Source: an uncultured Bacilli bacterium
GTDB lineage: Bacteria > Bacillota_I > Bacilli_A > RF39 > UBA660
DNA length: 64,000 bases
Assembly (NCBI GenBank): GCA_947623735.1
Contig: CANQHE010000001.1
Span: 18,687-82,686, forward strand
Direction of reading: 5' to 3'
Position 1 is the stretch's first letter, and each line of letters starts with the position of its first letter. Of the stretch, positions 3,421-47,573 are shown piece after piece. Both the position numbers and the translations under genes were made by a program. The notes under the pieces were generated by a model, which had not been told where the DNA came from, did not search any database, and saw only the letters and a list, made by a program, of their open reading frames with translations.

Positions 3421-3828
3421 CTACCACATTAAATCCTTAACTTTTAATAGGAGGCTTTGTTTATTATAATAAAAAGTCAGAAAAACAATCTCATTCGAAT
3501 TAAGTGTTTTATCAATCTTTAATACCAAGGATTGATAACTTATCATATTTTCTTGGTCCACTTTCATTTCGCTATCAATAATTTCATATTTAACCTTTCT
3601 ATTATTAATTTTTAGAGCATCAATTTCTATATTACTGGGAATTACTGTATTAATAACACATTCTTTATCACAAGTAACATATCCTTTTCCCTGATAGTTA
3701 TCATAAACTTCCTTTTTCATCATATATCCTAGTATTATAAGCATAATTAAAAAACTTAATAAAATTATAATCCAAAATTTTCTTGGTTTTTGATTCAAAA
3801 GAACTAATTTATTATCAGTTAAATTCAT
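3421..3828 (-). CDS. membrane-anchored accessory protein of the bacteriocin export operon (possible short secretion accessory or immunity protein)
   Basis: 135 aa with N-terminal TM (FWIIILLSFLIMLIILGYMM) and a beta-rich C-terminal domain. Overlaps the ABC transporter stop (ATGA coupling). Confidence 0.4.
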   Translation of the reverse strand: MNLTDNKLVLLNQKPRKFWIIILLSFLIMLIILGYMMKKEVYDNYQGKGYVTCDKECVINTVIPSNIEIDALKINNRKVKYEIIDSEMKVDQENMISYQSLVLKIDKTLNSNEIVFLTFYYNKQSLLLKVKDLMW

Positions 3829-5882
3829 TCTGGTAAATCCTCCACCATAATCACATTTTTAAAGCAATCTTTCATATCTTTATGGGAAACATAAATTAAT
3901 ATTTTATCTTTATAATATTTCATAATTTTTTTAAGTATTGCTCTTTCCATTGTAATACTTACTTCACTTAATGCTTCATCAAGCATAATAACACTAGCTT
4001 TTTTAAGTAGAGCTCGAGCCAAAATAATTCTTTGTCTTTCCCCTCCACTTAAATTATTAATACTGGCATTAATAATTGTTTCATACCGGTTAGGTCTTTT
4101 ACTAACTATATCTTCAATTTCACAAATTTTAGTTACTTCAAGAAACTCTTCTTCCCGAATATTTCTAAAACAAATAATATTATCTCTAATTGTTCCTGTA
4201 AATAATCTTTCTTCCTGTCCTACATATAATATATCCCTTCTTATAGCTTCCAAACTGAAATCTTTTTCACTCTGATTGTTTAAAAGTATATTACCATCAT
4301 ATCCTTCAATAATTCGATAAATAAGTTTACAAACTGTACTTTTACCAGCTCCGCTTGGTCCATCAATTAAAACCTTGCTTTTACTATCAAGTTTAAAACT
4401 TACATCTTTTAACACTTTTTTATAAGTATTATAACTAAAACTTACCTTTTTAAATTCCAATTCTTCAATCTTTAAAGTTTTTAATCCCACATCCCGAGCT
4501 TCCTCTTTTATGGCTAAAAACTCACTCAATTTACTAAAAGAAGCCTTTAAATAATTATATTTTGGTATCAGTTCTAAAATTTCTTTTACAGGGTCAAATA
4601 AATAAAGAATAATACTATTAAACGTAACTAAATTTAGAACATCTAACTTTCCCTGATTTATTAAATAAAATCCCAAAGTCATGATAACAAAAAGACCCAT
4701 TTCATAAATAAAATCTTTCATCAAATCAATTCCATTAAGTAAACTTTGTAAATTAAAATTGCATCTTAATAACTTTATAAGTTTACTCTCTAACTTCTGA
4801 AAGAATGTATCTTCCATATTCAAATTTTTAATGCTGGTATTTTGTTCTATCATCTCAATTAGATTAGCATTAAACTCTGTTCCCACTTCGATATTATTCT
4901 TCACTTTCCGATATATAATCTTACTAAAAAGCAAGCCTATTCCTATATAAATACTTACTATTAAACAAAGCACTAAAAATAGTTTCGCATTTATAAAGTA
5001 TAACACCAACGCTGCTCCAATAAGCAACACCGTATTAAGAAGAACACTTGTGAATATTTCTGAAAGTAAATTTTTTACTTGTCCGAGTTCCTCTACCCTT
5101 GATACAATTTCTCCTGTCTCACGGTTTTGCATAAATTTTAAAGGGAGACCAAAAATATGCTTTAAAGTATCATCGTATACCGCAATATCTAAATTCTTAT
5201 TAAAATAATTTAAATAATAACTTCGCATGAATTTACAAATAATTTTTAGTAAAGTGAGAAAGAAAAATATCAAAACCATAAACTTTACTAATCCTAAATC
5301 TTCTCCTTTATTTAACATGGTAATAACTATTTGAAAATAAAAAGTCCCAATAATCGAAAAAATAATTAAAATTAATGTTATAAAACAAATAATAATAAAC
5401 TGTTTTCTATTACTTTTTAACAACTTGAGAAATAAATTATAAATAGATAGTTCTCTATCATATTTTATAATATTATTTACTGGCATAAACAAACCTAAAA
5501 TATTATCCCAAATTTGTAAAAACTCTTTTATTTTCATTTTAACTTTACCACGGGCTGGGTCCATTATATAAATATCATTATTACTAATTTTATATATAAC
5601 TACAAAATGATTTAAACCATTTTTTAAGACTACATGAGCTATCGCGGGTAAATAGATATTTTTATCATGAATATTATCCACTCTGACACCAGTTGCTTCA
5701 AACCCATATTTTACTGCGGCTTTTATGAGTTGATAAAGATTCGTGCCATTACTAGTAGTAATCGTATCATCTCTAATTTTATCTATTGGAACATAACCGC
5801 CATAATATTTTATAATCGACGCCAAAGAACAAGCTCCACAATCTGTAATATCATGTTGTCTTACAACTTCTACTTTTGCTAT
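3825..5882 (-). CDS. bacteriocin-processing ABC transporter with N-terminal C39 peptidase domain; apparent ATA initiation codon (first canonical start TTG at 5825 lies after the catalytic Cys)
   Basis: C-terminal ABC ATPase motifs GPSGAGKST, LSGGERQRIILARAL, IMLDEA; six TM helices. The in-frame extension upstream of the track's TTG start encodes IAKVEVVRQHDITDCGACSLASI, matching the C39 QxxDxxDCGxAC active site. The only stop upstream is TAA at 5886-5888, and GGGAGGG lies 7 nt before the ATA at 5882. Confidence 0.75.
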   Translation of the reverse strand: MAKVEVVRQHDITDCGACSLASIIKYYGGYVPIDKIRDDTITTSNGTNLYQLIKAAVKYGFEATGVRVDNIHDKNIYLPAIAHVVLKNGLNHFVVIYKISNNDIYIMDPARGKVKMKIKEFLQIWDNILGLFMPVNNIIKYDRELSIYNLFLKLLKSNRKQFIIICFITLILIIFSIIGTFYFQIVITMLNKGEDLGLVKFMVLIFFFLTLLKIICKFMRSYYLNYFNKNLDIAVYDDTLKHIFGLPLKFMQNRETGEIVSRVEELGQVKNLLSEIFTSVLLNTVLLIGAALVLYFINAKLFLVLCLIVSIYIGIGLLFSKIIYRKVKNNIEVGTEFNANLIEMIEQNTSIKNLNMEDTFFQKLESKLIKLLRCNFNLQSLLNGIDLMKDFIYEMGLFVIMTLGFYLINQGKLDVLNLVTFNSIILYLFDPVKEILELIPKYNYLKASFSKLSEFLAIKEEARDVGLKTLKIEELEFKKVSFSYNTYKKVLKDVSFKLDSKSKVLIDGPSGAGKSTVCKLIYRIIEGYDGNILLNNQSEKDFSLEAIRRDILYVGQEERLFTGTIRDNIICFRNIREEEFLEVTKICEIEDIVSKRPNRYETIINASINNLSGGERQRIILARALLKKASVIMLDEALSEVSITMERAILKKIMKYYKDKILIYVSHKDMKDCFKNVIMVEDLPE

Positions 5883-37214: not shown

Positions 37215-38657
37215 GTGAATAACATGGAAAATAAAATAATCAAACGACTAAAAAAAGAATTTACAAGTGTTCCCGACTTAACCATCAAAAAAATTAAAAT
37301 TTCGTTATTTACAACGGTATATGTCGCCTACATTGAAACTGTTTCATCTTCCGATAAAGTAAATGACTATATCTTAAAAAACTTAAGTCACTTAAGTATA
37401 TCTAAAAATCCTAAAATATATAACTTAGATAGTATTATTCCCGGTCCCAACAGTATTACAATTAAAAACTTAGATGAAATGGAATATTACATTACTAATG
37501 GTTTTACTCTTGTAATATTAAATGACTCTCTTATTGCTGTCGAAACTAAAGCCGATATAAATCGAGGTATTCCCACTCCTGATACCGAACCCGCCACCAA
37601 TGGTCCCAAAGATGCTTTCACGGAAAATTATCAAATAAACATGGGTTTAATTAAAAGACGTCTTAAAAGTAGTACTCTAAAAACTACCGAATTTACTGTC
37701 GGTCGTATTACTAAAACCAAAGTTGGTTTATTATACTTATCAGATATTGCTGATGAAACTCTTATTAATGATATCTCAAATCGTATTTCTAAAATCGATA
37801 TTGATGGTATTATTGATAGTTCCACTCTCGGTCAACTTATTTGTGCTGAAAATAAAGCTCATTTCCCTATTTATGTTATTACCGAAAGACCTGATAACGT
37901 TTCTAAAGCTTTACTTGAAGGTAAAATTGCAATTGTTGTTGATACTTCTCCTTTTGTCATATTATTGCCGGCTTTTTTTGCGGATTTCATTAATCCTGGT
38001 GTCGATAGTTATCATAAAAGTACCAATATTAATTTTTTAAAAATTCTTCGTCTCGCTTGTTTTTTCTTATCGATGACTATCCCGGCTATCTATATTGCTT
38101 TAGTAAATTACAATCAAGAAACAATCCCGACTCCTCTCTTAGTCAGTTTTAGCATTCAAAGAGATGGCGTTCCCTTCCCCGCAATAATTGAAGCCTTTAT
38201 TATGTTATTTATTTGTGAAATGATGCGTGAATCAGACCTTAGATTTCCCAACTCTTATGGTAGTGCTATTTCTATTCTTGGCGCTTTAGTTTTAGGTGAT
38301 GCCGCGGTTACTGCCGGAATTGTTTCCCCTATCATGATTATTATTATTGCGCTAACTTTTATCGCAAGTCTTATCTTTACAGAAATTGAGGTTTATAATG
38401 CTCTTCGTTTTAGTCGTTTTGCCTTTTTATTATTTGCCTCTTTCTATGGTATTTTAGGTATTGTTTTTGGTATGTTTTACTTTTTAATAAAAATATGTGA
38501 TATCAAATCATTTAATAAACCTTACTTCTATCCTATCTCTCCTTATGATAAAACTTACTTCTTCAAAACTATCCTTAAAAAACCAACCGCGAAAGATACT
38601 AAAAGAAGTTCGATGTTAACCCATAAAAACTTTACTAAAAAAGGTGAATCGCTATGA
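37215..38657 (+). CDS. spore germination protein, GerA (A-subunit) family
   Basis: 480 aa with N-terminal soluble domain plus C-terminal TM region containing ...GVPFPAIIEAFIMLFICEMMRESDLRFPNSYGSAISILGALVLGDAAV..., typical of GerAA/GerKA. Confidence 0.85.
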   Translation: MNNMENKIIKRLKKEFTSVPDLTIKKIKISLFTTVYVAYIETVSSSDKVNDYILKNLSHLSISKNPKIYNLDSIIPGPNSITIKNLDEMEYYITNGFTLVILNDSLIAVETKADINRGIPTPDTEPATNGPKDAFTENYQINMGLIKRRLKSSTLKTTEFTVGRITKTKVGLLYLSDIADETLINDISNRISKIDIDGIIDSSTLGQLICAENKAHFPIYVITERPDNVSKALLEGKIAIVVDTSPFVILLPAFFADFINPGVDSYHKSTNINFLKILRLACFFLSMTIPAIYIALVNYNQETIPTPLLVSFSIQRDGVPFPAIIEAFIMLFICEMMRESDLRFPNSYGSAISILGALVLGDAAVTAGIVSPIMIIIIALTFIASLIFTEIEVYNALRFSRFAFLLFASFYGILGIVFGMFYFLIKICDIKSFNKPYFYPISPYDKTYFFKTILKKPTAKDTKRSSMLTHKNFTKKGESL

Positions 38658-39733
38658 AAAAAATATTTCTTTTATTTATTCTAACTTTTCTTCTATCAGG
38701 CTGTTATGACTATAATGAACTTAATGATTTAGCCATCATATCCGGAATTGGCATTGACTATACAAATGATAAATATGAAGTAACCTTTGAAATTATGAGT
38801 ACTAAAAAAGAAGGTGACTCATCTAGTGCTTCCACATCTAGTTATACGGTCTCATCTAAAGGTAAAACTGTCTTTGAAGCCTTTTCTAACAATGGTAATA
38901 TCATGGATAAAGTTCCCTATTATGACCATGTTGAAGTTGTTGTAATCGATGAAGAAGTAGCCAAAAATCATTTAGAAGAAGTCGCTGAATTTTTAATTCG
39001 GAACTCTAAATTCCGTAATGAAGTTTATCTAACCATCAGTAGTAATACTAAAGCCAAAGATTTATTATCGGCTTCTTTTAAAGAAAAACCTGATGCTAGT
39101 TCCTTTATTGTCGGTCTCCTTGAACATAGTTCTAACTCATCAAGCGCGGGCTATTATGATATCTTTACCGAAACTCTAAATAACATTTTAACTAAAGGTA
39201 AAGATGCTCGTCTCCCTGTTTTTACTTTAAAAGATAAAAAAATATCTTTAATCGGTATTGGTCTTTTTAAAGATTTTAAATTACAAACTATATTAGATAA
39301 TAAATCTTCAGTTATTCTAAATATTTTAAGTAACTTTAATGTTGAAACAGCTCTATTTGAAAAATCATGTGCCAGTAATAATAAAACTGTGATAAGTATT
39401 TATGAATCTAATATATCTATCGAACCTAATAATAAAAATACGATTATCTCTGGTAATATAAGTGCTCGGATAAATGAAGATACTTGTAATTATGACTTAA
39501 AAAAAACTAATACTTACGAACTATTAGAAGACCAATTTACTAAAGTTATTACCGAAGATTTTAATAATACGATTAATAATTTAAAACTATATCAAACTGA
39601 TATCTTAAGTATAGGTAAAAGTTATTATAATAAATATCGTAAACCCTATTATAATCTTTGGATTAATCAAGATTTTATCTATGATATTGATTTAAAAATA
39701 AATAAGAAAGGTTTAATATTTGAGGTGAATTAA
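38654..39733 (+). CDS. spore germination lipoprotein, GerAC (C-subunit) family
   Basis: Lipobox FLLSGCYDY plus Ger(x)C-type domain. Overlaps the A-subunit stop (ATGA). Confidence 0.8.
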   Translation: MKKIFLLFILTFLLSGCYDYNELNDLAIISGIGIDYTNDKYEVTFEIMSTKKEGDSSSASTSSYTVSSKGKTVFEAFSNNGNIMDKVPYYDHVEVVVIDEEVAKNHLEEVAEFLIRNSKFRNEVYLTISSNTKAKDLLSASFKEKPDASSFIVGLLEHSSNSSSAGYYDIFTETLNNILTKGKDARLPVFTLKDKKISLIGIGLFKDFKLQTILDNKSSVILNILSNFNVETALFEKSCASNNKTVISIYESNISIEPNNKNTIISGNISARINEDTCNYDLKKTNTYELLEDQFTKVITEDFNNTINNLKLYQTDILSIGKSYYNKYRKPYYNLWINQDFIYDIDLKINKKGLIFEVN

Positions 39734-40770
39734 TGAAACAAATATCTAGTATTAATTATTTTTTAACTCGTAGTTTATTTTTAGGTTTTGGTATATCTCT
39801 TATTCTAAACTATGGTAAAGATTCTTACTTAGGCGCTTTACTTGGCATATTTATTGGTTTAATTATTAATTATTTTTATAAATATATTATTAATAATAAA
39901 CCTTCTACTAATTTAGATACTCTCTATCAAAAAAATAAAAAACTAGGCCTTATCGCCAAAACATCTCTTTTTATTGTAAGTTACCTCATTCTTCTTTATA
40001 CTCTAATTTTATATATTACTTTTGTAATTAGTTTCCTCTTAGTTAGTTCTCCCGAATATTATTGTTTAATTCCTTTTATTATTCTCTCTCTCATGCTTGC
40101 TTTTAAAGGTTTAACTAATATTTCCCGAGTATCTTTTGTTTTATTATTTTTTAGTCTTATTTTTACCCTTCTTGGTTTTTTAGGTCTCTTAGGTTTATTT
40201 AACACCCAAAGCTTTCTCCCCATTCTTACTAATACTCCTCTAAATTTTTTAAAAGCCACTTTAACTTTCGCGGGTATTAGTACGTTTCCGAGTATTTTAA
40301 CTCTTCATTTTCCCCCAAATCCCAAGCATTATCAAAAATCTTATCTTCTATCCTCTCTAACTATTCTTTTTACGATAATCTTTATCATCGGTGTTTATGG
40401 TGAACCCTTAATGAATATTTTTCGCTTTCCTGAATATACCATCTTAAAACAAATTAAAATGTTTAACTTCATCGAAAAAGTTGAAAACATCTTCTCTGTT
40501 GTCTGGATATTTGATTTATTTATAACTACTACAATGGCAATATATTCAATAAATAAAGCATTACCCCCTAAAAATAATAAATTAATAACTATTATTATTC
40601 TTATTGTAACATCAATTATTATTGATACGATATTTTCTTATAACTATGTAAATGAACTCCGTCTTTATTATCTTCTTCCCATCTTATCCTTAACTTTTTC
40701 CATAGTAATACTAATTATATATCTAATTCTCATTAAGAAAACTCACACTAAATCATCATCTACTATATAA
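39733..40770 (+). CDS. spore germination protein, GerAB (B-subunit) family permease
   Basis: 345 aa polytopic membrane protein; its start overlaps the C-subunit stop (TAATG). Confidence 0.75.
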   Translation: MKQISSINYFLTRSLFLGFGISLILNYGKDSYLGALLGIFIGLIINYFYKYIINNKPSTNLDTLYQKNKKLGLIAKTSLFIVSYLILLYTLILYITFVISFLLVSSPEYYCLIPFIILSLMLAFKGLTNISRVSFVLLFFSLIFTLLGFLGLLGLFNTQSFLPILTNTPLNFLKATLTFAGISTFPSILTLHFPPNPKHYQKSYLLSSLTILFTIIFIIGVYGEPLMNIFRFPEYTILKQIKMFNFIEKVENIFSVVWIFDLFITTTMAIYSINKALPPKNNKLITIIILIVTSIIIDTIFSYNYVNELRLYYLLPILSLTFSIVILIIYLILIKKTHTKSSSTI

Positions 40771-41336: not shown

Positions 41337-41388
41337 TTTAACACTCCCTATAAAATTATATTAAATAATATCTAATTTAATACAAAAC

Positions 41389-41462
41389 AAAAAAGATAGA
41401 GAGTAACCTCTATCATGGAGTTTCTTCCTGCCCATATATAAATTCGAAAGCAATATGAGCAA
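41389..41462 (-). terminator. conserved 3' module with intrinsic terminator (copy 1), shared with 43636-43712
   Basis: On the coding (minus) strand ...CATGATAGAGgttactCTCTATCTTTT is a 7-bp stem plus T run. ~70 nt are near-identical at both loci. Confidence 0.6.
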
Positions 41463-41469
41463 GTTATTA

Positions 41470-42885
41470 TTATTCAGCACCCTCTACAACAAATGGATCA
41501 GAAACAGTTCCTATCCCACTTAACTTAACAGTACTAGCTAAATTTATTACAGGGCGTACACCTTGAGATCCCGAAGTTCCATTCAGATTATAACTATTAT
41601 CTGCAAAAAACAACATTGCACTACCCTGACTATAAGAAAATGGAGACATGGTCCAAAACTGTTGACCAGTATAAATATAATAACTAGTATTTTTATTATA
41701 TCCTTGATTTCCACCCGCATATATTATTTCATCAGAAGTTATTAAGCCTATTGGATATGTAAGTTTATGATTACCTATAAGTTCACCAGAAGTGTTTTTT
41801 GCATCCTTTAAAGTAAATAAATCCTGTTCTTTTTGTTTGCACATAAGTGTAGGGCTTTGAATAGTTCTATAACTACCATTAAGAAAAGTTCTTCCCATTG
41901 GCCCATATGCCGTTGCATTTTTTCCATAACCTAACCTTGAATCTGACCATACACTATTACTCACCCAAACCTCTGAAGTAGTATTTAAGCTTCTATCATT
42001 GCAAAAGCCACTATCTTTATCTATCATAGCTGAATATTTTTCAAGATTTTCTTTATACCAATTATCAACAGCAATTTTTACAGTACTATCATATTCATTA
42101 GTATGAGTTTCCTTATATGAATTTTTATTTTGATTACCATACATATATCCAACAAAAGTATTATCTCCAAGAGAAGAATTAAATGCTACTTTTTCACTCA
42201 ATATACTATCTTCAGCCATTTGCTCTGATGACTTTCCATTATAAATAATTCTAATTGAACCATTGCCATTTATTCGAATAATTCGCCAATAAAACCCAGC
42301 AAATTTTACCCAATTATCTTTAATAGCACCCCGGAAATAATAACTTCTACCATAATCATCTTCAGTCTCATATAATTTTCCACTTCCATCAGCGGTTTCT
42401 ATGCTATCAAAACTTGTTTTACTTTTTTCAATAATTTTATTAGCCACTACTTTTTTACATGCTATAGCCGAAGCATCACAATACTTATTTATTTCATTGA
42501 ACCAAACATAACATTTATCCTGTTTGGCCAAATTAGCCATAATATGGTTACCATTTTCTGTTTTTAAAATAACTTCTTGATCTCTACTATCACCATTAAC
42601 ACAATAACTTTTTTCTGTGTTAATTAAATAAGAATTAGCATCTGGCATTCTTTCTATTGATGATTCATTTCCTTCATCATCTATGGTGTACATAGCCATA
42701 ATTTTAAAATCATAAGCTTTTGCATTAATTGTTCCTCTTACTATAGGAATACTTTCTGTTAGTTGATATTTAGCTTTTGTTAAAAATAAATTTATAATAA
42801 CAAATACTAAAGCACATAATACAAAACCAACTATCATACCTCTTTTTAAATTATTGCCTCCATAATTTACTTTCTCAAACTTCAA
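41470..42885 (-). CDS. N-terminally anchored extracytoplasmic protein of unknown family, paralog A
   Basis: 471 aa with N-in signal anchor (IVGFVLCALVFVIINLF). Shares motifs with 43734-45293: YYFRG..KDNWV.F...YWRIIRINGNGSIR(I/L)IY, HTNE, GLITSDE..(Y/F)AGG, WTMSP(F/Y)S, GVRPVINL. Confidence 0.65.
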   Translation of the reverse strand: MKFEKVNYGGNNLKRGMIVGFVLCALVFVIINLFLTKAKYQLTESIPIVRGTINAKAYDFKIMAMYTIDDEGNESSIERMPDANSYLINTEKSYCVNGDSRDQEVILKTENGNHIMANLAKQDKCYVWFNEINKYCDASAIACKKVVANKIIEKSKTSFDSIETADGSGKLYETEDDYGRSYYFRGAIKDNWVKFAGFYWRIIRINGNGSIRIIYNGKSSEQMAEDSILSEKVAFNSSLGDNTFVGYMYGNQNKNSYKETHTNEYDSTVKIAVDNWYKENLEKYSAMIDKDSGFCNDRSLNTTSEVWVSNSVWSDSRLGYGKNATAYGPMGRTFLNGSYRTIQSPTLMCKQKEQDLFTLKDAKNTSGELIGNHKLTYPIGLITSDEIIYAGGNQGYNKNTSYYIYTGQQFWTMSPFSYSQGSAMLFFADNSYNLNGTSGSQGVRPVINLASTVKLSGIGTVSDPFVVEGAE

Positions 42886-43041: not shown

Positions 43042-43497
43042 GTGATAAAGATGTACAAAGATAGAATAAAATTTTTAAGAGAAAGATATGGTTACACTCA
43101 AAAAAATATTGCTGATATCTTAAAAATAGACCGCGGTTTATATGCTCAATATGAAATTGAATACTCTATCATTCCCATTAAACATCTTATAAAAATAGCC
43201 AACTATTTCAAAGTATCTATCGACTATATATTTTCTTTTACAGATAAAATGGAAAAAGTAATTCCTAAAGAAATAGATAAAAAACTATCAGGAAAAAGAA
43301 TAAAAGAATTACGAAAAAGTTTAAAACTAACTCAAACTGAATTTGTAAATCATCTTAATATAAACCAATCAACCATCGCCGAATACGAACGTGGTACTAA
43401 TCTAATCGCCACCTACTCTTTATATTCCATTTGTAAAAAATACAATATATCAGCCGACTATCTTCTAGGTAGAATTGATAAAAATACTATAAACTAA
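43042..43497 (+). CDS. tandem-HTH XRE-family regulator (paralog 2 of 4), divergent from 41470-42885
   Basis: 151 aa ...YTQKNIADILKIDRGLYAQYE...VSIDYIFSF... then ...LTQTEFVNHLNINQSTIAEYERG...ISADYLLGRIDKNTIN. Confidence 0.7.
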   Translation: MIKMYKDRIKFLRERYGYTQKNIADILKIDRGLYAQYEIEYSIIPIKHLIKIANYFKVSIDYIFSFTDKMEKVIPKEIDKKLSGKRIKELRKSLKLTQTEFVNHLNINQSTIAEYERGTNLIATYSLYSICKKYNISADYLLGRIDKNTIN

Positions 43498-43635
43498 TTA
43501 TATATTAATGATGTAAAAATAACATCATCATACAAAAATGAGGAAATATTTTTTGTATGCCCTAATTTCCCGACTTTATATCTTAATTATTGTTCCAATT
43601 CCATATTTTTAGCACTTCTTATATCGAATCTATTC

Positions 43636-43712
43636 AAAACTAAAAGATAGAGAGTAACCTCTATCATGGAGTTTCTTCCTGCCCATATATAAATTCGAAA
43701 GCAATATGAGCA
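43636..43712 (-). terminator. conserved 3' module with intrinsic terminator (copy 2)
   Basis: Same sequence as 41389-41462, including GATAGAGgttactCTCTATC plus T run. Confidence 0.6.
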
Positions 43713-43733
43713 AGCGATACTTTATTTTTAATA

Positions 43734-45293
43734 TTACAATGTTTGGACTACGTATGGATTAGTACCTGTTCCTGGATCTCCTTTTTCATCAAGTGTAAAT
43801 TTTGTACCAGCTTTCAGATTTATTACTGGGCGCACACCAGTAATTTCGTTGGGCACGTAGTTGCTGGTGAGGTCGCCATCATTATTCACAAGGAACACAT
43901 AAGCAAAGGCGCCGTAAAAGCTATACGGAGACATTGTCCAATAATACCTATTAGTATATAGCCAATAACCATGGTTTGATGTTCCTCCAAAACCTCCTGC
44001 AAATACTACTTCATCACTTGTTATTAAGCCGACGGGCACTGGTAACTTATTATTCCCTTTTACCATTTCTCCATTGCTTCCTTTTGTTCCACTTGTATTA
44101 GCACTCGGACCTGTATACAAGTCTCTTTCTTGTGCTGTTTTATCTGTTGAGCTTCCATTATATCCACACTTCAATGTCGGTGTTTGAGTTTTCTTCCAAC
44201 CGTTAGTATAAATTCTTCCCCATGGGGCATAGCCTGTATATTGGTTTCCGTATCCATCGCCTGGAGCGCTTTGATCTGCTGTTTTATCTACCTGCCTATC
44301 TCCACAAAAGCCGGTATCTACATCTATGTAACCATTTGCTAATGTTCCTAAGTTTGTATTATTTGTATACCAATTTACTATTTCATCTAATACTGTACTA
44401 TTACTTGCATTTGTATGGGTTTCTTCGTATTTGCTTTTGCCTATTCCTCCTGTCATATAACCTACGTATGTATTATCATTATAACTTTGATTAAAATACA
44501 CAGCTCGGGGATATGAACTACCACCAATATTTTGTCGTGGCGTTATCATTGTTGTTTCTCCAGTTGCGCTTGGAGCCTTTTTAGTATCTTTACTTGTCCC
44601 AGCATAGATTAATCGTATTGTTCCATTTCCATTAATTCGGATGATTCGCCACCAGATATATTGGTTGTTTGTGGTGTCTTTTCCAAACACTAACCAGTTA
44701 TTATCGATTGTTCCCCTATAATAATAACTTATTCCAAAATCATCTTCCGCTTCATATACTCCATTTTCTCTTAATGTACAACCCCCATCACATGATGTTC
44801 CTGTAAATTTGGCACTTCCGTTTGAAGTTAAACCTAAATCATTAAGTACATCTTCACTAGTTATTATTTTTTCTTCATCAAAAAACAAATAACATTTAGT
44901 CCCCTTTTTACTATATGGTTTGACACTTATTGTTTTATTTTCTTTATCAAAATTTATTGTTAAACTAGTACTCTTTACATCTTCAAAACTATTACTTTCA
45001 TTGGTGTATTTTTCTGTACAATAACTTTCATTTTCATTAAATACATAATTATCTTGTATAGTATCCACATCTTCATAAGTTTGACTACCATTTGCTTTAA
45101 ATTTTATTCCTGCTAACTCAAAATCCACTAATGTATAATTTATTGTTCCATTTGCTAATTTTCTACTTTCCACTAATTTATACTTTGCTCTCGTAAAAAA
45201 TAAATTAATTACTATTACTAATACAAATGCTATTACAAAGCCTATTAATATTCCCTTTTTCCCATTTACATAATTTATTTTCTCAAACTTCAA
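43734..45293 (-). CDS. N-terminally anchored extracytoplasmic protein of unknown family, paralog B
   Basis: 519 aa with signal anchor ILIGFVIAFVLVIVINLFF. Same motif set as paralog A; C-terminal ...FLVNNDGDLTSNYVPNEITGVRPVINLKAGTKFTLDEKGDPGTGTNPYVVQTL. Confidence 0.65.
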   Translation of the reverse strand: MKFEKINYVNGKKGILIGFVIAFVLVIVINLFFTRAKYKLVESRKLANGTINYTLVDFELAGIKFKANGSQTYEDVDTIQDNYVFNENESYCTEKYTNESNSFEDVKSTSLTINFDKENKTISVKPYSKKGTKCYLFFDEEKIITSEDVLNDLGLTSNGSAKFTGTSCDGGCTLRENGVYEAEDDFGISYYYRGTIDNNWLVFGKDTTNNQYIWWRIIRINGNGTIRLIYAGTSKDTKKAPSATGETTMITPRQNIGGSSYPRAVYFNQSYNDNTYVGYMTGGIGKSKYEETHTNASNSTVLDEIVNWYTNNTNLGTLANGYIDVDTGFCGDRQVDKTADQSAPGDGYGNQYTGYAPWGRIYTNGWKKTQTPTLKCGYNGSSTDKTAQERDLYTGPSANTSGTKGSNGEMVKGNNKLPVPVGLITSDEVVFAGGFGGTSNHGYWLYTNRYYWTMSPYSFYGAFAYVFLVNNDGDLTSNYVPNEITGVRPVINLKAGTKFTLDEKGDPGTGTNPYVVQTL

Positions 45294-45456: not shown

Positions 45457-45906
45457 ATGTTTGATAACAATAATATTAAAAGTATAAGAGAACAAGCAAA
45501 CTTAACCCAGGATGAAATGGCCAAAAAATTAGGAGTTAAAAGAAGTACCTATTCCATGTGGGAAAGTAATAATGAATGTATTCCCATAAAAAGATTAATT
45601 AAACTTGTTAATTTGTTTAATCTTTCTATTGATTATGTTTTTAACTTTACAAGCCAAAAGCAATACCCTAATTGCAAAGAAATTAATATCAAAGAAAGTG
45701 GTAAAAGATTAAAAGAATTTAGAAAGAATCTTAATTTAACTCAAATAGAACTGGGAGAAATTTTAAAAATAGCACCTACGATGGTTTTAGAATACGAAAA
45801 AGGTAGATACATAATATCTACTGGTACATTATATTTATTATGTAAAAAATACCATATATCCGCCGACTATCTTTTAGGTAGAATTGATAAAAATACTTTA
45901 AAATAA
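45457..45906 (+). CDS. tandem-HTH XRE-family regulator (paralog 3 of 4), divergent from 43734-45293
   Basis: 149 aa ...LTQDEMAKKLGVKRSTYSMWE...LSIDYVFNF... then ...LTQIELGEILKIAPTMVLEYEKG...ISADYLLGRIDKNTLK. Confidence 0.7.
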   Translation: MFDNNNIKSIREQANLTQDEMAKKLGVKRSTYSMWESNNECIPIKRLIKLVNLFNLSIDYVFNFTSQKQYPNCKEINIKESGKRLKEFRKNLNLTQIELGEILKIAPTMVLEYEKGRYIISTGTLYLLCKKYHISADYLLGRIDKNTLK

Positions 45907-46039
45907 AAAGATGTTGTTCTAATTTTATATTCCAGATATAAAATATCAACATCATTTATTTTAAGTAAAACTTAAGGAATAGTCTTGTATCCTAATTCTA
46001 TTATACTAAACCTTAATCAAGTATATAAGTTCTAAAAGG

Positions 46040-46140
46040 ATATTGGGCGCACACCAAAGATATTGTTGTTCACGTTGTTGTTGAGCTGGCCATCATTATA
46101 CACAACGAACACGCCAAACCAACTAAAAGAAATATTACTT
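46040..46140 (-). pseudogene. orphan 3' cassette 1, homologous to the C-terminal ~30 aa of 43734-45293
   Basis: Minus-strand translation FSWFGVFVVYNDGQLNNNVNNNIFGVRPISF* aligns to FAYVFLVNNDGDLTSNYVPNEITGVRPVINL of the full gene. No start, no upstream ORF. Preceded (in plus coordinates) by a ~95-nt conserved flank at 45943-46037. Confidence 0.55.
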
Positions 46141-46360
46141 AATCTAAACTATCCCTCATTTATTATATCATAAATTTTTTAAAAACAAATGGATTCATTT
46201 ACCATTTGTTTTTTAATTTAAAAAGATATTGTCCTAGCATTAAACACGAAGATTTAAAGCATCAATATCATTTATTTTAAGTAAAACTTAAGGATTAATC
46301 TTGTATCCTAATTCTTTTCTACTAAACCTTAATCAAGTATATAAGTTTTAAAAGGATATT

Positions 46361-46440
46361 GGGCGCACACCAGGTCTATCCCAGTTCACATTGTTGTTGG
46401 TGAGGTAGCCATCATCACGCACAAAAAATCACAAAATAGA
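46361..46440 (-). pseudogene. orphan 3' cassette 2, a second divergent copy
   Basis: Minus-strand translation ...VRDDGYLTNNNVNWDRPGVRPISF*. The same ~95-nt flank sits at 46264-46358 with ~90% identity to copy 1, so the unit is tandem with a ~321 nt period. Confidence 0.55.
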
Positions 46441-46451
46441 CTAACCCTAAA

Positions 46452-47573
46452 TTAAATATCTAATCTTAAAACTATATCACTTTCAGGATAACTAACACAA
46501 GGATGAATATAATCATTTTCATTCATAGCCTTAACCATACTACTTCCAATCATTTTTACATTACCTTCAAGTAAAATACTTCTACAATATCCACATATTC
46601 CTACTCTACACATTGAAGGTGCCTTAATATTTGCTTTTTCCATTGCAACTAATAATGTTTCATCACTCTTACAAGTAGTTTCTACTAAATCATCTTTTAA
46701 TATTACTTTAAGACTATATTTTTTTATTTCTGAAGGTGTATAATCTACTTGAAAATTTTCATAATGCACACATTTCTTTGGAATATCAAATTCCATTAAA
46801 ATTTCATTCATTGTTTTATATAAAGTTTTAGGTCCACACATCAAAACTGTATTAAATTCTTTAATATATGGTTCTAACATTTCTTTATTTATATGTCCAT
46901 ATAAATATTCATCAGCCTCTTCTCTTGTTAAAGTAATAACAAACTTAACCTTTCTACTTTTCTTATTAATACTTTCTATTTCATTTCTAAAAATTATATC
47001 ATCTTTAGTTTTCGCTGAATAAAATACTGTTAAATTAGCATCTATCTCTTTATCTATTATTGAATATGCGATGGCCATAAAAGGTGTAATTCCACTACCC
47101 CCAGCAATACCAATAATATTTTTTTCATCTCTTATTTCATTATAACCAAACTCTCCCATCGGTCTAGATATCGTAAGACCATCTCCTACTTTCATATTAT
47201 CTAACATAATATTACTTACAAGACCATTTTCTACTCTTTTAATTGTAATTCGATATTCCCCTTTTTTTGCTAAACTTGGTCTTGAAGATAACGAATAAGC
47301 TCTTGTTGCATACTCTTCATCAATAAACATTTTAAGACTAATGTATTGTCCTGCTTTAAAAGGTTCTAAACTATCTGTTCCTTTACTTTTATCTGGTATT
47401 AAAATAAAAGATTTAGTATCTTTAGTCTCACTAATAATATCTTTAATAATTACATATTGTAAATCTTTACTATCTTTAACTAAAGTATCAATATTAGTAT
47501 CTTTAATATCTCTCCCACTATAATCTTTAATAATATCATTCCGTACTTTCTTTAATTTTTCAATCTTATCCAT
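46452..47573 (-). CDS. oxidoreductase with FAD/NAD(P)-binding domain and C-terminal 2Fe-2S ferredoxin domain
   Basis: 373 aa with ferredoxin-reductase-type fold motifs (GIAGGSGITPFMAI) and C-terminal ...SMCRVGICGYCRS... plant-type [2Fe-2S] cysteine pattern. Confidence 0.65.
   Translation of the reverse strand: MDKIEKLKKVRNDIIKDYSGRDIKDTNIDTLVKDSKDLQYVIIKDIISETKDTKSFILIPDKSKGTDSLEPFKAGQYISLKMFIDEEYATRAYSLSSRPSLAKKGEYRITIKRVENGLVSNIMLDNMKVGDGLTISRPMGEFGYNEIRDEKNIIGIAGGSGITPFMAIAYSIIDKEIDANLTVFYSAKTKDDIIFRNEIESINKKSRKVKFVITLTREEADEYLYGHINKEMLEPYIKEFNTVLMCGPKTLYKTMNEILMEFDIPKKCVHYENFQVDYTPSEIKKYSLKVILKDDLVETTCKSDETLLVAMEKANIKAPSMCRVGICGYCRSILLEGNVKMIGSSMVKAMNENDYIHPCVSYPESDIVLRLDI

Follow-up and report, generated by a model that had tools for sequence, protein, structure and literature searches.

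Two tandem units beside a surface-protein gene of an uncultured Bacilli bacterium are probably template RNA genes of a multi-copy, diversity-generating retroelement type

What are two tandem, untranslatable partial copies of a surface-protein gene doing next to that gene? The question is raised by a stretch of 64,000 nucleotides (the window) from contig CANQHE010000001.1 of an uncultured Bacilli bacterium. Here the minus-strand gene 43734-45293 encodes a membrane-anchored, DUF6273-like surface protein of 519 amino acids, and two units beside it, also on the minus strand, resemble its variable segment. The original prediction saw in these units silent cassettes for gene conversion of the pilS/vlsE type or else decaying remnants of further paralogs. 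Our analysis points elsewhere: the units are probably stand-alone genes for template RNAs of the kind used by diversity-generating retroelements (DGRs), in an unlinked, multi-copy architecture, and the gene 43734-45293 is their presumed, possibly former, target. The assignment of the family rests on conservation, covariation, architecture and an adenine signature. What we observe is the anatomy of an RNA gene, its conservation and covariation, its copy number, adenine-specific differences in other genomes and a template-like codon footprint in the window. The multi-copy RNA family is previously undescribed.

The tandem arrangement itself was confirmed, as direct repeats at 45934-46083 and 46250-46399 are 88% identical over 150 nt; the period is 316 nt and not ~321 nt as first given. 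Read on the minus strand, each unit consists of a homolog of the variable segment, then a flank of ~95 nt, then a hairpin that lies between an A-tract and a T-tract. The flank is near-identical between the two units and is absent 3′ of the full-length surface genes. The predicted composition, a flank of ~95 nt joined to a gene-like segment, thus holds, with a segment length of 76-100 nt in place of 60-100 nt. The peptides encoded by the segments are those that had been claimed, ...VVYNDGQLNNNVNNNIFGVRPISF* and ...VRDDGYLTNNNVNWDRPGVRPISF*, to be compared with ...LVNNDGDLTSNYVPNEITGVRPVINL in the gene 43734-45293, and both units are indeed devoid of a start codon and of a usable open reading frame (ORF). 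The homology to the gene is real; it had been placed at the C-terminus of the protein and lies in residues ~457-488 of 519, with ~30 more residues beyond.

The two copies have also diverged from each other, as predicted, but in a strongly uneven manner: 20 of 58 positions differ in the cassette, 5 of 103 in the flank core and 16 of 57 in the terminal hairpin (Fisher 1e-6 and 1e-4). The flank core is therefore 95% identical between the units, against 65-72% for the adjoining parts, and the differences in the hairpin are mostly compensatory. Uniform decay of a duplicated relic would not give such a pattern. At the end of the cassette, the 12-mer GGTGTGCGCCCA has exactly three minus-strand occurrences, at 43827, 46044 and 46360, where 0.27 would be expected by chance even if 2 mismatches were tolerated. 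The sequence that comes after it is GTAATAAATCT in the gene 43734-45293 and ATATCCTTTTA in the units, which makes the 12-mer a GC-rich shared 3′ end with divergence immediately beyond, and a candidate for the common 3′ end of template and variable segment, similar to the IMH (initiation of mutagenic homing) sequence of DGRs.

The units are not a peculiarity of this contig. Using the cassette/flank junction pattern GGNGTNCGNCCNATATCCTTTTA on one genome per species, we found 134 copies at 101 loci in 27 gut Bacilli species genomes, and a metagenome scan yielded 34 additional loci. The carriers are gut metagenome-assembled genomes, of uncultured Bacilli, Mycoplasma sp. CAG:776, Tenericutes UMGS1172, Ca. 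Caccenecus and others. With a profile made from the unit flanks and run over the loci of the junction scan, we recovered 182 units from 31 genomes, with up to 20 per genome and up to 11 within 8 kb, the cassettes being short and Asn/AAC-rich in every case. All the junction copies are short cassettes: the in-frame ORF upstream is only 21-74 codons long and ends at GVRPISF*. Homology among the cassettes starts near a conserved (M)SPYN motif, and their consensus is SPYNFNGSNANVFxVNSNGNLNNNNVNNTNGVRPISF. The 105 cassette peptides examined are all mutually distinct, and asparagine makes up 35% of the cassette-tip residues versus 11% in full-length genes. Against a profile built without them, the window units score 113.9 bits (unit 2) and 112.1 bits (unit 1) over the full length, the family median being 114.4.

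Several arrays lie between housekeeping or other chromosomal genes. At locus L043 the array (1560-2900) stands between a surface gene and the S10 ribosomal operon, and at L100 (1180-4400) between uvrA and a three-ORF cluster; contig CANRPK010000020.1 (L096/L104) carries ~12 units over two adjacent loci. A phage or plasmid origin of the units was also considered and is not supported: three unit-derived patterns found no match in the viral contigs scanned, and blastn of a whole L043 unit against phage and plasmid collections gave short partial matches to the hairpin/tail end, none of them at a DGR.

What does the conserved flank contain? In an alignment of 127 units, four elements can be distinguished. 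The first, P1, is made of the invariant strands UAUCCU and AGGAUA, for which the units with variant junctions, recovered by the profile, offer six compensated versions (TATTCT/AGAATA, TACCTT/AAGGTA, TACCCT/AGGGTA, TACTCT/AGAGTA, TATCTT/AAGATA and TAACCT/AGGTTA). The P2 hairpin, located between the P1 strands, covaries as well (e.g., GC 93 / AU 33). A short hairpin (P3) and a long hairpin (P4) come next, the covariation of P4 being heavy (UA 74 / CG 44, GC 72 / AU 47). Furthermore, upstream of the cassette we found a leader of 10 nt (consensus GGGTTAATCT), at a median of 121 nt upstream of the junction, which is complementary to the flank segment AGATTAATCC that begins 2 nt after P1. The pairing is 10/10 in 97 of 124 units and 9/10 in 26 of 124, where only 0.5% of shuffled controls reach 10. 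In this long-range helix several pair types are used per position (at position 1, TA 59 / GC 46 / AT 25). Covariation supports four predicted helices.

The units also appear to have their own expression signals. In 118 of 152 units a -10-like hexamer closely precedes the leader; the promoter at L046 has the textbook form TTGACT-17-TATAAT, and at L100 the promoter/leader layout is repeated in consecutive units. Each unit would thus be a self-contained gene for a predicted non-coding RNA of ~230-255 nt. Two other ways of reading the units were tried and rejected. An antisense RNA from the plus strand was set aside, as it is with the minus (cassette-sense) strand that covarying helices, -10 boxes and T-runs alike agree. 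Small peptides resembling ribosomally synthesized and post-translationally modified peptides (RiPPs) had been suggested by the many MSPYN starts, but many copies, both window units included, have no start codon.

Both units of the window follow this plan. Unit 1, a predicted RNA gene at 45900-46170 (minus strand) with a transcript from ~46155 to ~45900, begins with the sequence of an extended -10 box, TGATATAAT (46170-46162). The leader GGGAUAGUUU (46146-46155), which would provide the 5′ side of the long-range helix closing off the template loop, pairs 10/10 with AGACUAUUCC (45985-45976), a compensated variant of the consensus pair GGGUUAAUCU/AGAUUAAUCC that is unique to unit 1. The following segment, ...FFSWFGVFVVYNDGQLNNNVNNNIFGVRP (46044-46145), similar to a DGR template repeat (TR), is AAC-rich like the rest of the family and has GGTGTGCGCCCA as its GC-rich 3′ end (46055-46044). 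The flank core (45976-46043), defined from covariation and fold, includes P1 (UAUCCU 46042-46037 / AGGAUA 45993-45988) with the P2 hairpin between its strands, a 2-nt CA and the 3′ strand of the long-range helix (45985-45976). The 3′ part (45902-45975) is made of the short P3 hairpin (45975-45961), an A-rich run, the long P4 (core 45953-45910) and a T-run which overlaps the stop codon of the opposite-strand regulator gene 45457-45906. Between the units, an extra hairpin (46176-46215) flanked by an A-tract and a T-tract resembles a bidirectional terminator.

In unit 2 (46216-46479, minus strand; predicted transcript from ~46447 to ~46216) two candidate -10 boxes, TGATATAGT (46479-46471) and TTTAAT (46456-46451), are found within the 3′ end of the oxidoreductase gene 46452-47573. 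Its leader GGGUUAGUCU (46438-46447) pairs 10/10, with two G-U pairs, to AGAUUAAUCC (46301-46292). The TR-like segment, ...VRDDGYLTNNNVNWDRPGVRP (46360-46437), carries GGTGTGCGCCCA at 46371-46360 and, with 76 nt from leader to junction, is the shortest of the family. The flank (46225-46359) is composed of P1 (46358-46353/46309-46304), CA, the long-range 3′ strand (46301-46292), P3 (46291-46277) and P4 (46269-46225, with compensatory pairs), and a T-run comes after it. The minimum-energy fold of 46155 to 45900 yields all the family helices of unit 1, and that of unit 2 forms the leader/flank helix and the family structure. The Rfam 15 covariance models, run at gathering and at permissive thresholds, gave chance-level matches only (E up to 10) with the window units and one canonical unit.

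Do the cassettes serve as templates? Differences confined to the adenines of the template are the defining mark of mutagenic retrohoming by DGRs. We compared each full-length gene with the cassette of its own genome that had the highest overall identity to it, and pooled the six pairs with at least 70% identity. Cassette adenines account for 65 of the 104 mismatches, adenine representing 30% of the cassette (p = 5e-12); in the reverse direction, only 9 of 104 fall on gene adenines. The changes at cassette adenines are A>G (39), A>T (17) and A>C (9). By locus, mismatches at cassette adenines are 11 of 11 in L043, 16 of 20 in L038 and 17 of 25 in L091. In L043, where the gene is directly followed by four units, the 11 differences with the first unit (13 of 13 over 93 nt) are at adenines and none is found at any other base. 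In the clean gene/cassette pairs we noticed zero synonymous changes, and differences at cassette adenines only. In some genomes at least, templating is shown by the adenine pattern of L043, L038 and L091. The full-length genes of the loci fall into two classes, those with template-like, GC-rich NNC codons and a GGTGTGCGYCCA end, and AT-rich ones with no nucleotide homology to the units.

The gene 43734-45293 of the window belongs to a large family. Together with its neighbour 41470-42885 it has more than 5000 homologs, some of them with PF19789/DUF6273, and every member of this family has a hypervariable stretch between 'VF.V' and 'GVRPVINL'. In the window gene the corresponding segment, SFYGAFAYVFLVNNDGDLTSNYVPNEITGVRP (43827-43922, minus strand), resembles a DGR variable repeat (VR) and has its 5′ block and its 3′ 12-mer in common with both units. 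C-ending codons are 15 of 32 (47%) in this segment versus 43 of 487 (9%) outside it (p = 1e-7), and its GC content is 0.50 versus 0.33 elsewhere in the gene. This footprint indicates that template-type sequence was written into 43734-45293 at some time. The paralog 41470-42885 (minus strand, 471 aa, 35% identical to 43734-45293) has an AT-rich equivalent segment with no nucleotide homology to the units; judged by its sequence, which bears no template-like codon footprint, it is not a target. In the AlphaFold model of the 43734-45293 protein (pLDDT 88) the variable segment is part of a beta-strand region, and the best Foldseek match of this model is a DUF6273-bearing Thomasclavelia IgA peptidase. 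A sequence search of solved structures with the same protein returned chance matches only.

Variation among assemblies was seen in the body of this gene. L003, a metagenome assembly of the same organism, is identical to the window over ~6.9 kb except for 63 clustered differences in a 280-nt mid-gene patch (44055-44336). Comparison led us to reject the neighbouring paralog as the origin of the patch, which may be a mosaic allele that arose when the gene recombined with a different paralog, or else an artefact of a chimeric assembly at low coverage. Moreover, the independent assemblies L002 and L003 end at most 7 nt apart (43993-44000), ~70 nt upstream of the variable segment, and a paralog-shared repeat or population heterogeneity in the variable segment could be the cause. 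Across the unit region, four metagenome assemblies of the organism are identical.

Several results weigh against the template interpretation. When the gene 43734-45293 is compared with unit 2, only 8 of 29 mismatches are at adenines (p = 0.33); with unit 1 no adenine-only fit was obtained, and a 3-nt gap is needed in addition. Nor is any of four further paralogs from this organism (P0004, P0006, P0020 and P0021) an adenine-only derivative of unit 1 or unit 2. The window templates are without the 5′ 'MSPYN' part and stand at the short end of the family (100 and 76 nt versus a median of 121), and a single allele of 43734-45293 is on record. In several other genomes, e.g., JAMPHW01, the full-length genes adjacent to units have no nucleotide homology to them. 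Finally, no ORF with the YxDD or the DGR-type GxxxSQxxAN motif of a reverse transcriptase (RT) was found in the 1.13 Mb around units that were searched (the window ORFs, ~13 kb of contig extensions (L109-L112) and 151 loci, 101 genome loci and 34 metagenome loci among the scope, as distinct from whole genomes), and the recurring neighbours, which alone were inspected for it, include no Avd-like (or HRDC) gene. With no RT near the units, the enzyme would be encoded at an unlinked position; alternatively, some lineages, the window organism perhaps among them, may lack it. The RNA genes of the window are intact and evidently constrained; a recent rewriting of 43734-45293 is unproven.

The genes that do recur near units encode surface proteins, XRE regulators, a YhcG nuclease, conjugation functions and housekeeping functions. 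In a clustering of 944 neighbouring ORFs only the YhcG/DUF1016 nuclease stood out, with a significance blurred by multi-genome synteny. The gene of this PD-(D/E)XK nuclease is found directly 3′ of 17 units, on the same strand, in [unit - nuclease] modules of ~1.3 kb, as in L088 (4713-5633 and 6033-6953) and also in L053, L063, L123 and L150.

How could such an RNA act? In the scheme that we propose, the RNA would start just past its own -10 box, and its 10-nt leader would pair with the flank segment, closing the template into a loop. The template would be an AAC-codon-rich copy of the variable tip of the DUF6273/C-type-lectin-like surface protein. Directly 3′ of it, UAUCCU would pair with AGGAUA, followed by 2 nt and by the long-range helix, and further downstream by the P3 hairpin, an A-rich run and the long P4 hairpin with its T-run. 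By analogy with the Bordetella phage DGR RNA, an RT encoded elsewhere in the genome may use the AGGAUA strand as its primer and copy the template, with adenines misread, as far as the leader helix. The cDNA could then replace the variable segment of 43734-45293, or of a paralog, by way of the shared ends GTGTTC..TTGTG..GATGGC and GGTGTGCGCCCA. For the window organism it is transcription, the enzyme, priming, homing and present-day activity that we infer.

This layout has a close counterpart in the DGR of a Bordetella phage. Cryo-EM of its ribonucleoprotein revealed a duplex between the template 3′ end and the spacer, with the spacer strand ending in the priming adenosine, then 2 nt, an upstream/spacer duplex at which cDNA synthesis halts, and finally a short stem-loop with adenosines. 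According to the same study, 207 of 278 DGRs have sequences on the two sides of the template that can pair (bioRxiv 10.1101/2023.10.23.563531). Like the BPP-1 RNA (avd-TR-Sp; Handa et al.), the units have two helices bracketing the template, with P1 at the template 3′ end, a CA linker, a leader/flank helix, P3 and an A-rich run, as well as a GC-rich 3′ end common to template and target. The leader helix would be the counterpart of the phage 'cPRT Stop' duplex, the upstream:spacer duplex of BPP-1 being 10-13 bp long. Unlike in BPP-1, there is no sequence similarity to the phage RNA, the units stand alone with a -10 box and a terminator-like hairpin where the phage segment is located between avd and brt, they have neither a linked RT nor a linked Avd, and there are many units per genome instead of one.

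The presumed target may be of a known kind: in gut phages, DUF6273, with its C-type-lectin-like fold, has been documented as a domain targeted by DGRs (PMC10743442). The units seem to share this target domain family with the phage DGRs that act on DUF6273/C-type-lectin-like receptor-binding proteins (tentaclins, Faecalibacterium prophages; PMC10743442, PMC11792537), and in both cases the variable segment would lie in a surface beta-hairpin region. Those phage DGRs are canonical, with one template adjoining the RT on the phage genome, whereas the targets here are chromosomal, membrane-anchored bacterial proteins. Systems with one enzyme, several repeats and distant components are known from multi-target DGRs (Stenotrophomonas, with 2 TRs and 6 VRs, PMC6642488; Treponema denticola, with remote targets, PMC4891356). 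There it is the variable repeats that are multiplied, with at most ~2 templates, whereas here the templates are multiplied, each with its own flank RNA. Our literature search returned DGRs with many targets and at most ~2 templates; neither arrays of templates nor the present lineages came up in it.

Neisseria pilS, Borrelia vls and Anaplasma msp2 likewise have arrays in which a surface protein's variable segment is present as unexpressed partial copies near an expressed gene, where DNA recombination creates mosaics identical to their donors. Could the units be silent donor cassettes for a RecA-type segmental gene conversion of this style? They are promoter-distal partial copies of exactly the variable segment, with ends common to the gene, they form arrays in other genomes, and the mosaic patch of L003 in the gene body is what conversion could leave. 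The idea of non-expressed donor copies put forward by the original prediction is in keeping with the codon footprint of 43734-45293 (47% versus 9%) and survives, but the recombinational mechanism attached to it is not supported. The variable segment of this gene has no cassette-identical tracts beyond the conserved ends, and the difference in asparagine content (11% versus 35%) indicates that full-length genes are not simple cassette mosaics. Nor does recombination yield pairs which differ at cassette adenines only, without a single synonymous change, as seen in related genomes. It also leaves unexplained the covarying 150-nt RNA structure, the -10 box and the terminator-like hairpin found on every cassette; these make the units something other than inert DNA copies, and pilS, vls and msp2 have neither an attached structured RNA nor adenine-specific changes. 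We consider gene conversion very unlikely. A still less probable explanation, to which we give hardly any credit, is that the units are functionless 3′ remnants of deleted paralogs, tandemly duplicated and decaying. The surface-gene/regulator module of the window is tandemly duplicated too, the window templates are 5′-truncated relative to the family, and no cognate adenine-only target was found in the organism, all of which would suit a relic. Against this, both units score as typical full-length members of the family and keep compensated helices, the long-range helix of unit 1 being doubly compensated, their flank core has remained far more alike than the adjoining parts, and junction and structure are conserved over 31 genomes.

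A more serious contender, unlikely though we believe it to be, takes the units for a structured RNA family with a non-templating role, regulatory or retron-like, or for fossil DGR RNAs kept for a secondary role after loss of the enzyme. The failure to find an enzyme in the 1.13 Mb, the many units adjoining genes without nucleotide homology to them, the YhcG-type nuclease gene after 17 units and the lack of the adenine signature in the window pair are all consistent with it. Such a role does not account for the embedded AAC-rich frame, which stays open and ends exactly at GVRP in all copies, for the adenine-specific pattern in L043, L038 and L091, or for a helix layout that is the layout of a reverse-transcription template. 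We therefore retain stand-alone template RNA genes of the DGR type as the probable identity of the units.

A broader scenario can be proposed, tentatively and with a little less than an even chance in our estimation. In a DGR lineage of gut Bacilli, many genomes of which are labelled Mycoplasma/Tenericutes, the template would have split from the enzyme and multiplied, giving each genome a library of template RNA genes (20 or more at the most, with as many as 11 in one array), every one with a -10-like box and a terminator-like hairpin of its own, from which one unlinked RT could rewrite DUF6273 tips using alternative templates; the window units would be members of this library in a spore-forming relative. 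DGR discovery starts from the RT and proceeds to one nearby template. If templates can exist as independent RNA genes, in many copies and remote from the enzyme, current DGR surveys miss such templates and their targets, and the choice among templates would add a second, combinatorial layer to DGR diversity. The family also represents a compact natural RNA scaffold (leader helix, template loop and primer helix) in more than 180 sequence variants, which could be useful for studies of recognition by DGR enzymes and for re-programmable mutagenesis tools. In addition, it suggests that uncultured gut Bacilli, about which little is known, have surface proteins that vary rapidly. In the window, what looked like pseudogene debris appears to hold two conserved RNA genes.

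The genes around the units complete this picture of the locus. The gene 45457-45906 (plus strand), convergent with unit 1, encodes a double helix-turn-helix regulator of the XRE type and pairs with the surface gene 43734-45293; 43042-43497 pairs likewise with the paralog, so that the surface-gene/regulator module is itself tandemly duplicated in the window, and the same pairing exists in 16 other loci. A 96-nt stretch, 94% identical, lies 3′ of both surface genes (41368-41463 and 43621-43714); it includes a hairpin, GATAGAGGTTACTCTCTATC, and a T-run, and seems to be a shared 3′ untranslated region/terminator unrelated to the unit flank. The GC content of the window is 0.29, and the GerA/GerAC/spore permease genes at 37215-40770 indicate that it belongs to a spore-forming member of the Bacillota. 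Ten large minus-strand ORFs, of up to 1663 aa, follow one another at 14134-36529; Listeria-Bacteroides repeat or Big_2 domains are present in several of them, while several others match nothing in Pfam, and they apparently constitute a surface-protein island. Lastly, the region 3421-5825 (locus L110, 5384-8506) encodes a C39-peptidase ABC transporter, a 135-aa ORF without Pfam match and four small ORFs (42-68 aa), and looks like a cluster for bacteriocin export and precursors.

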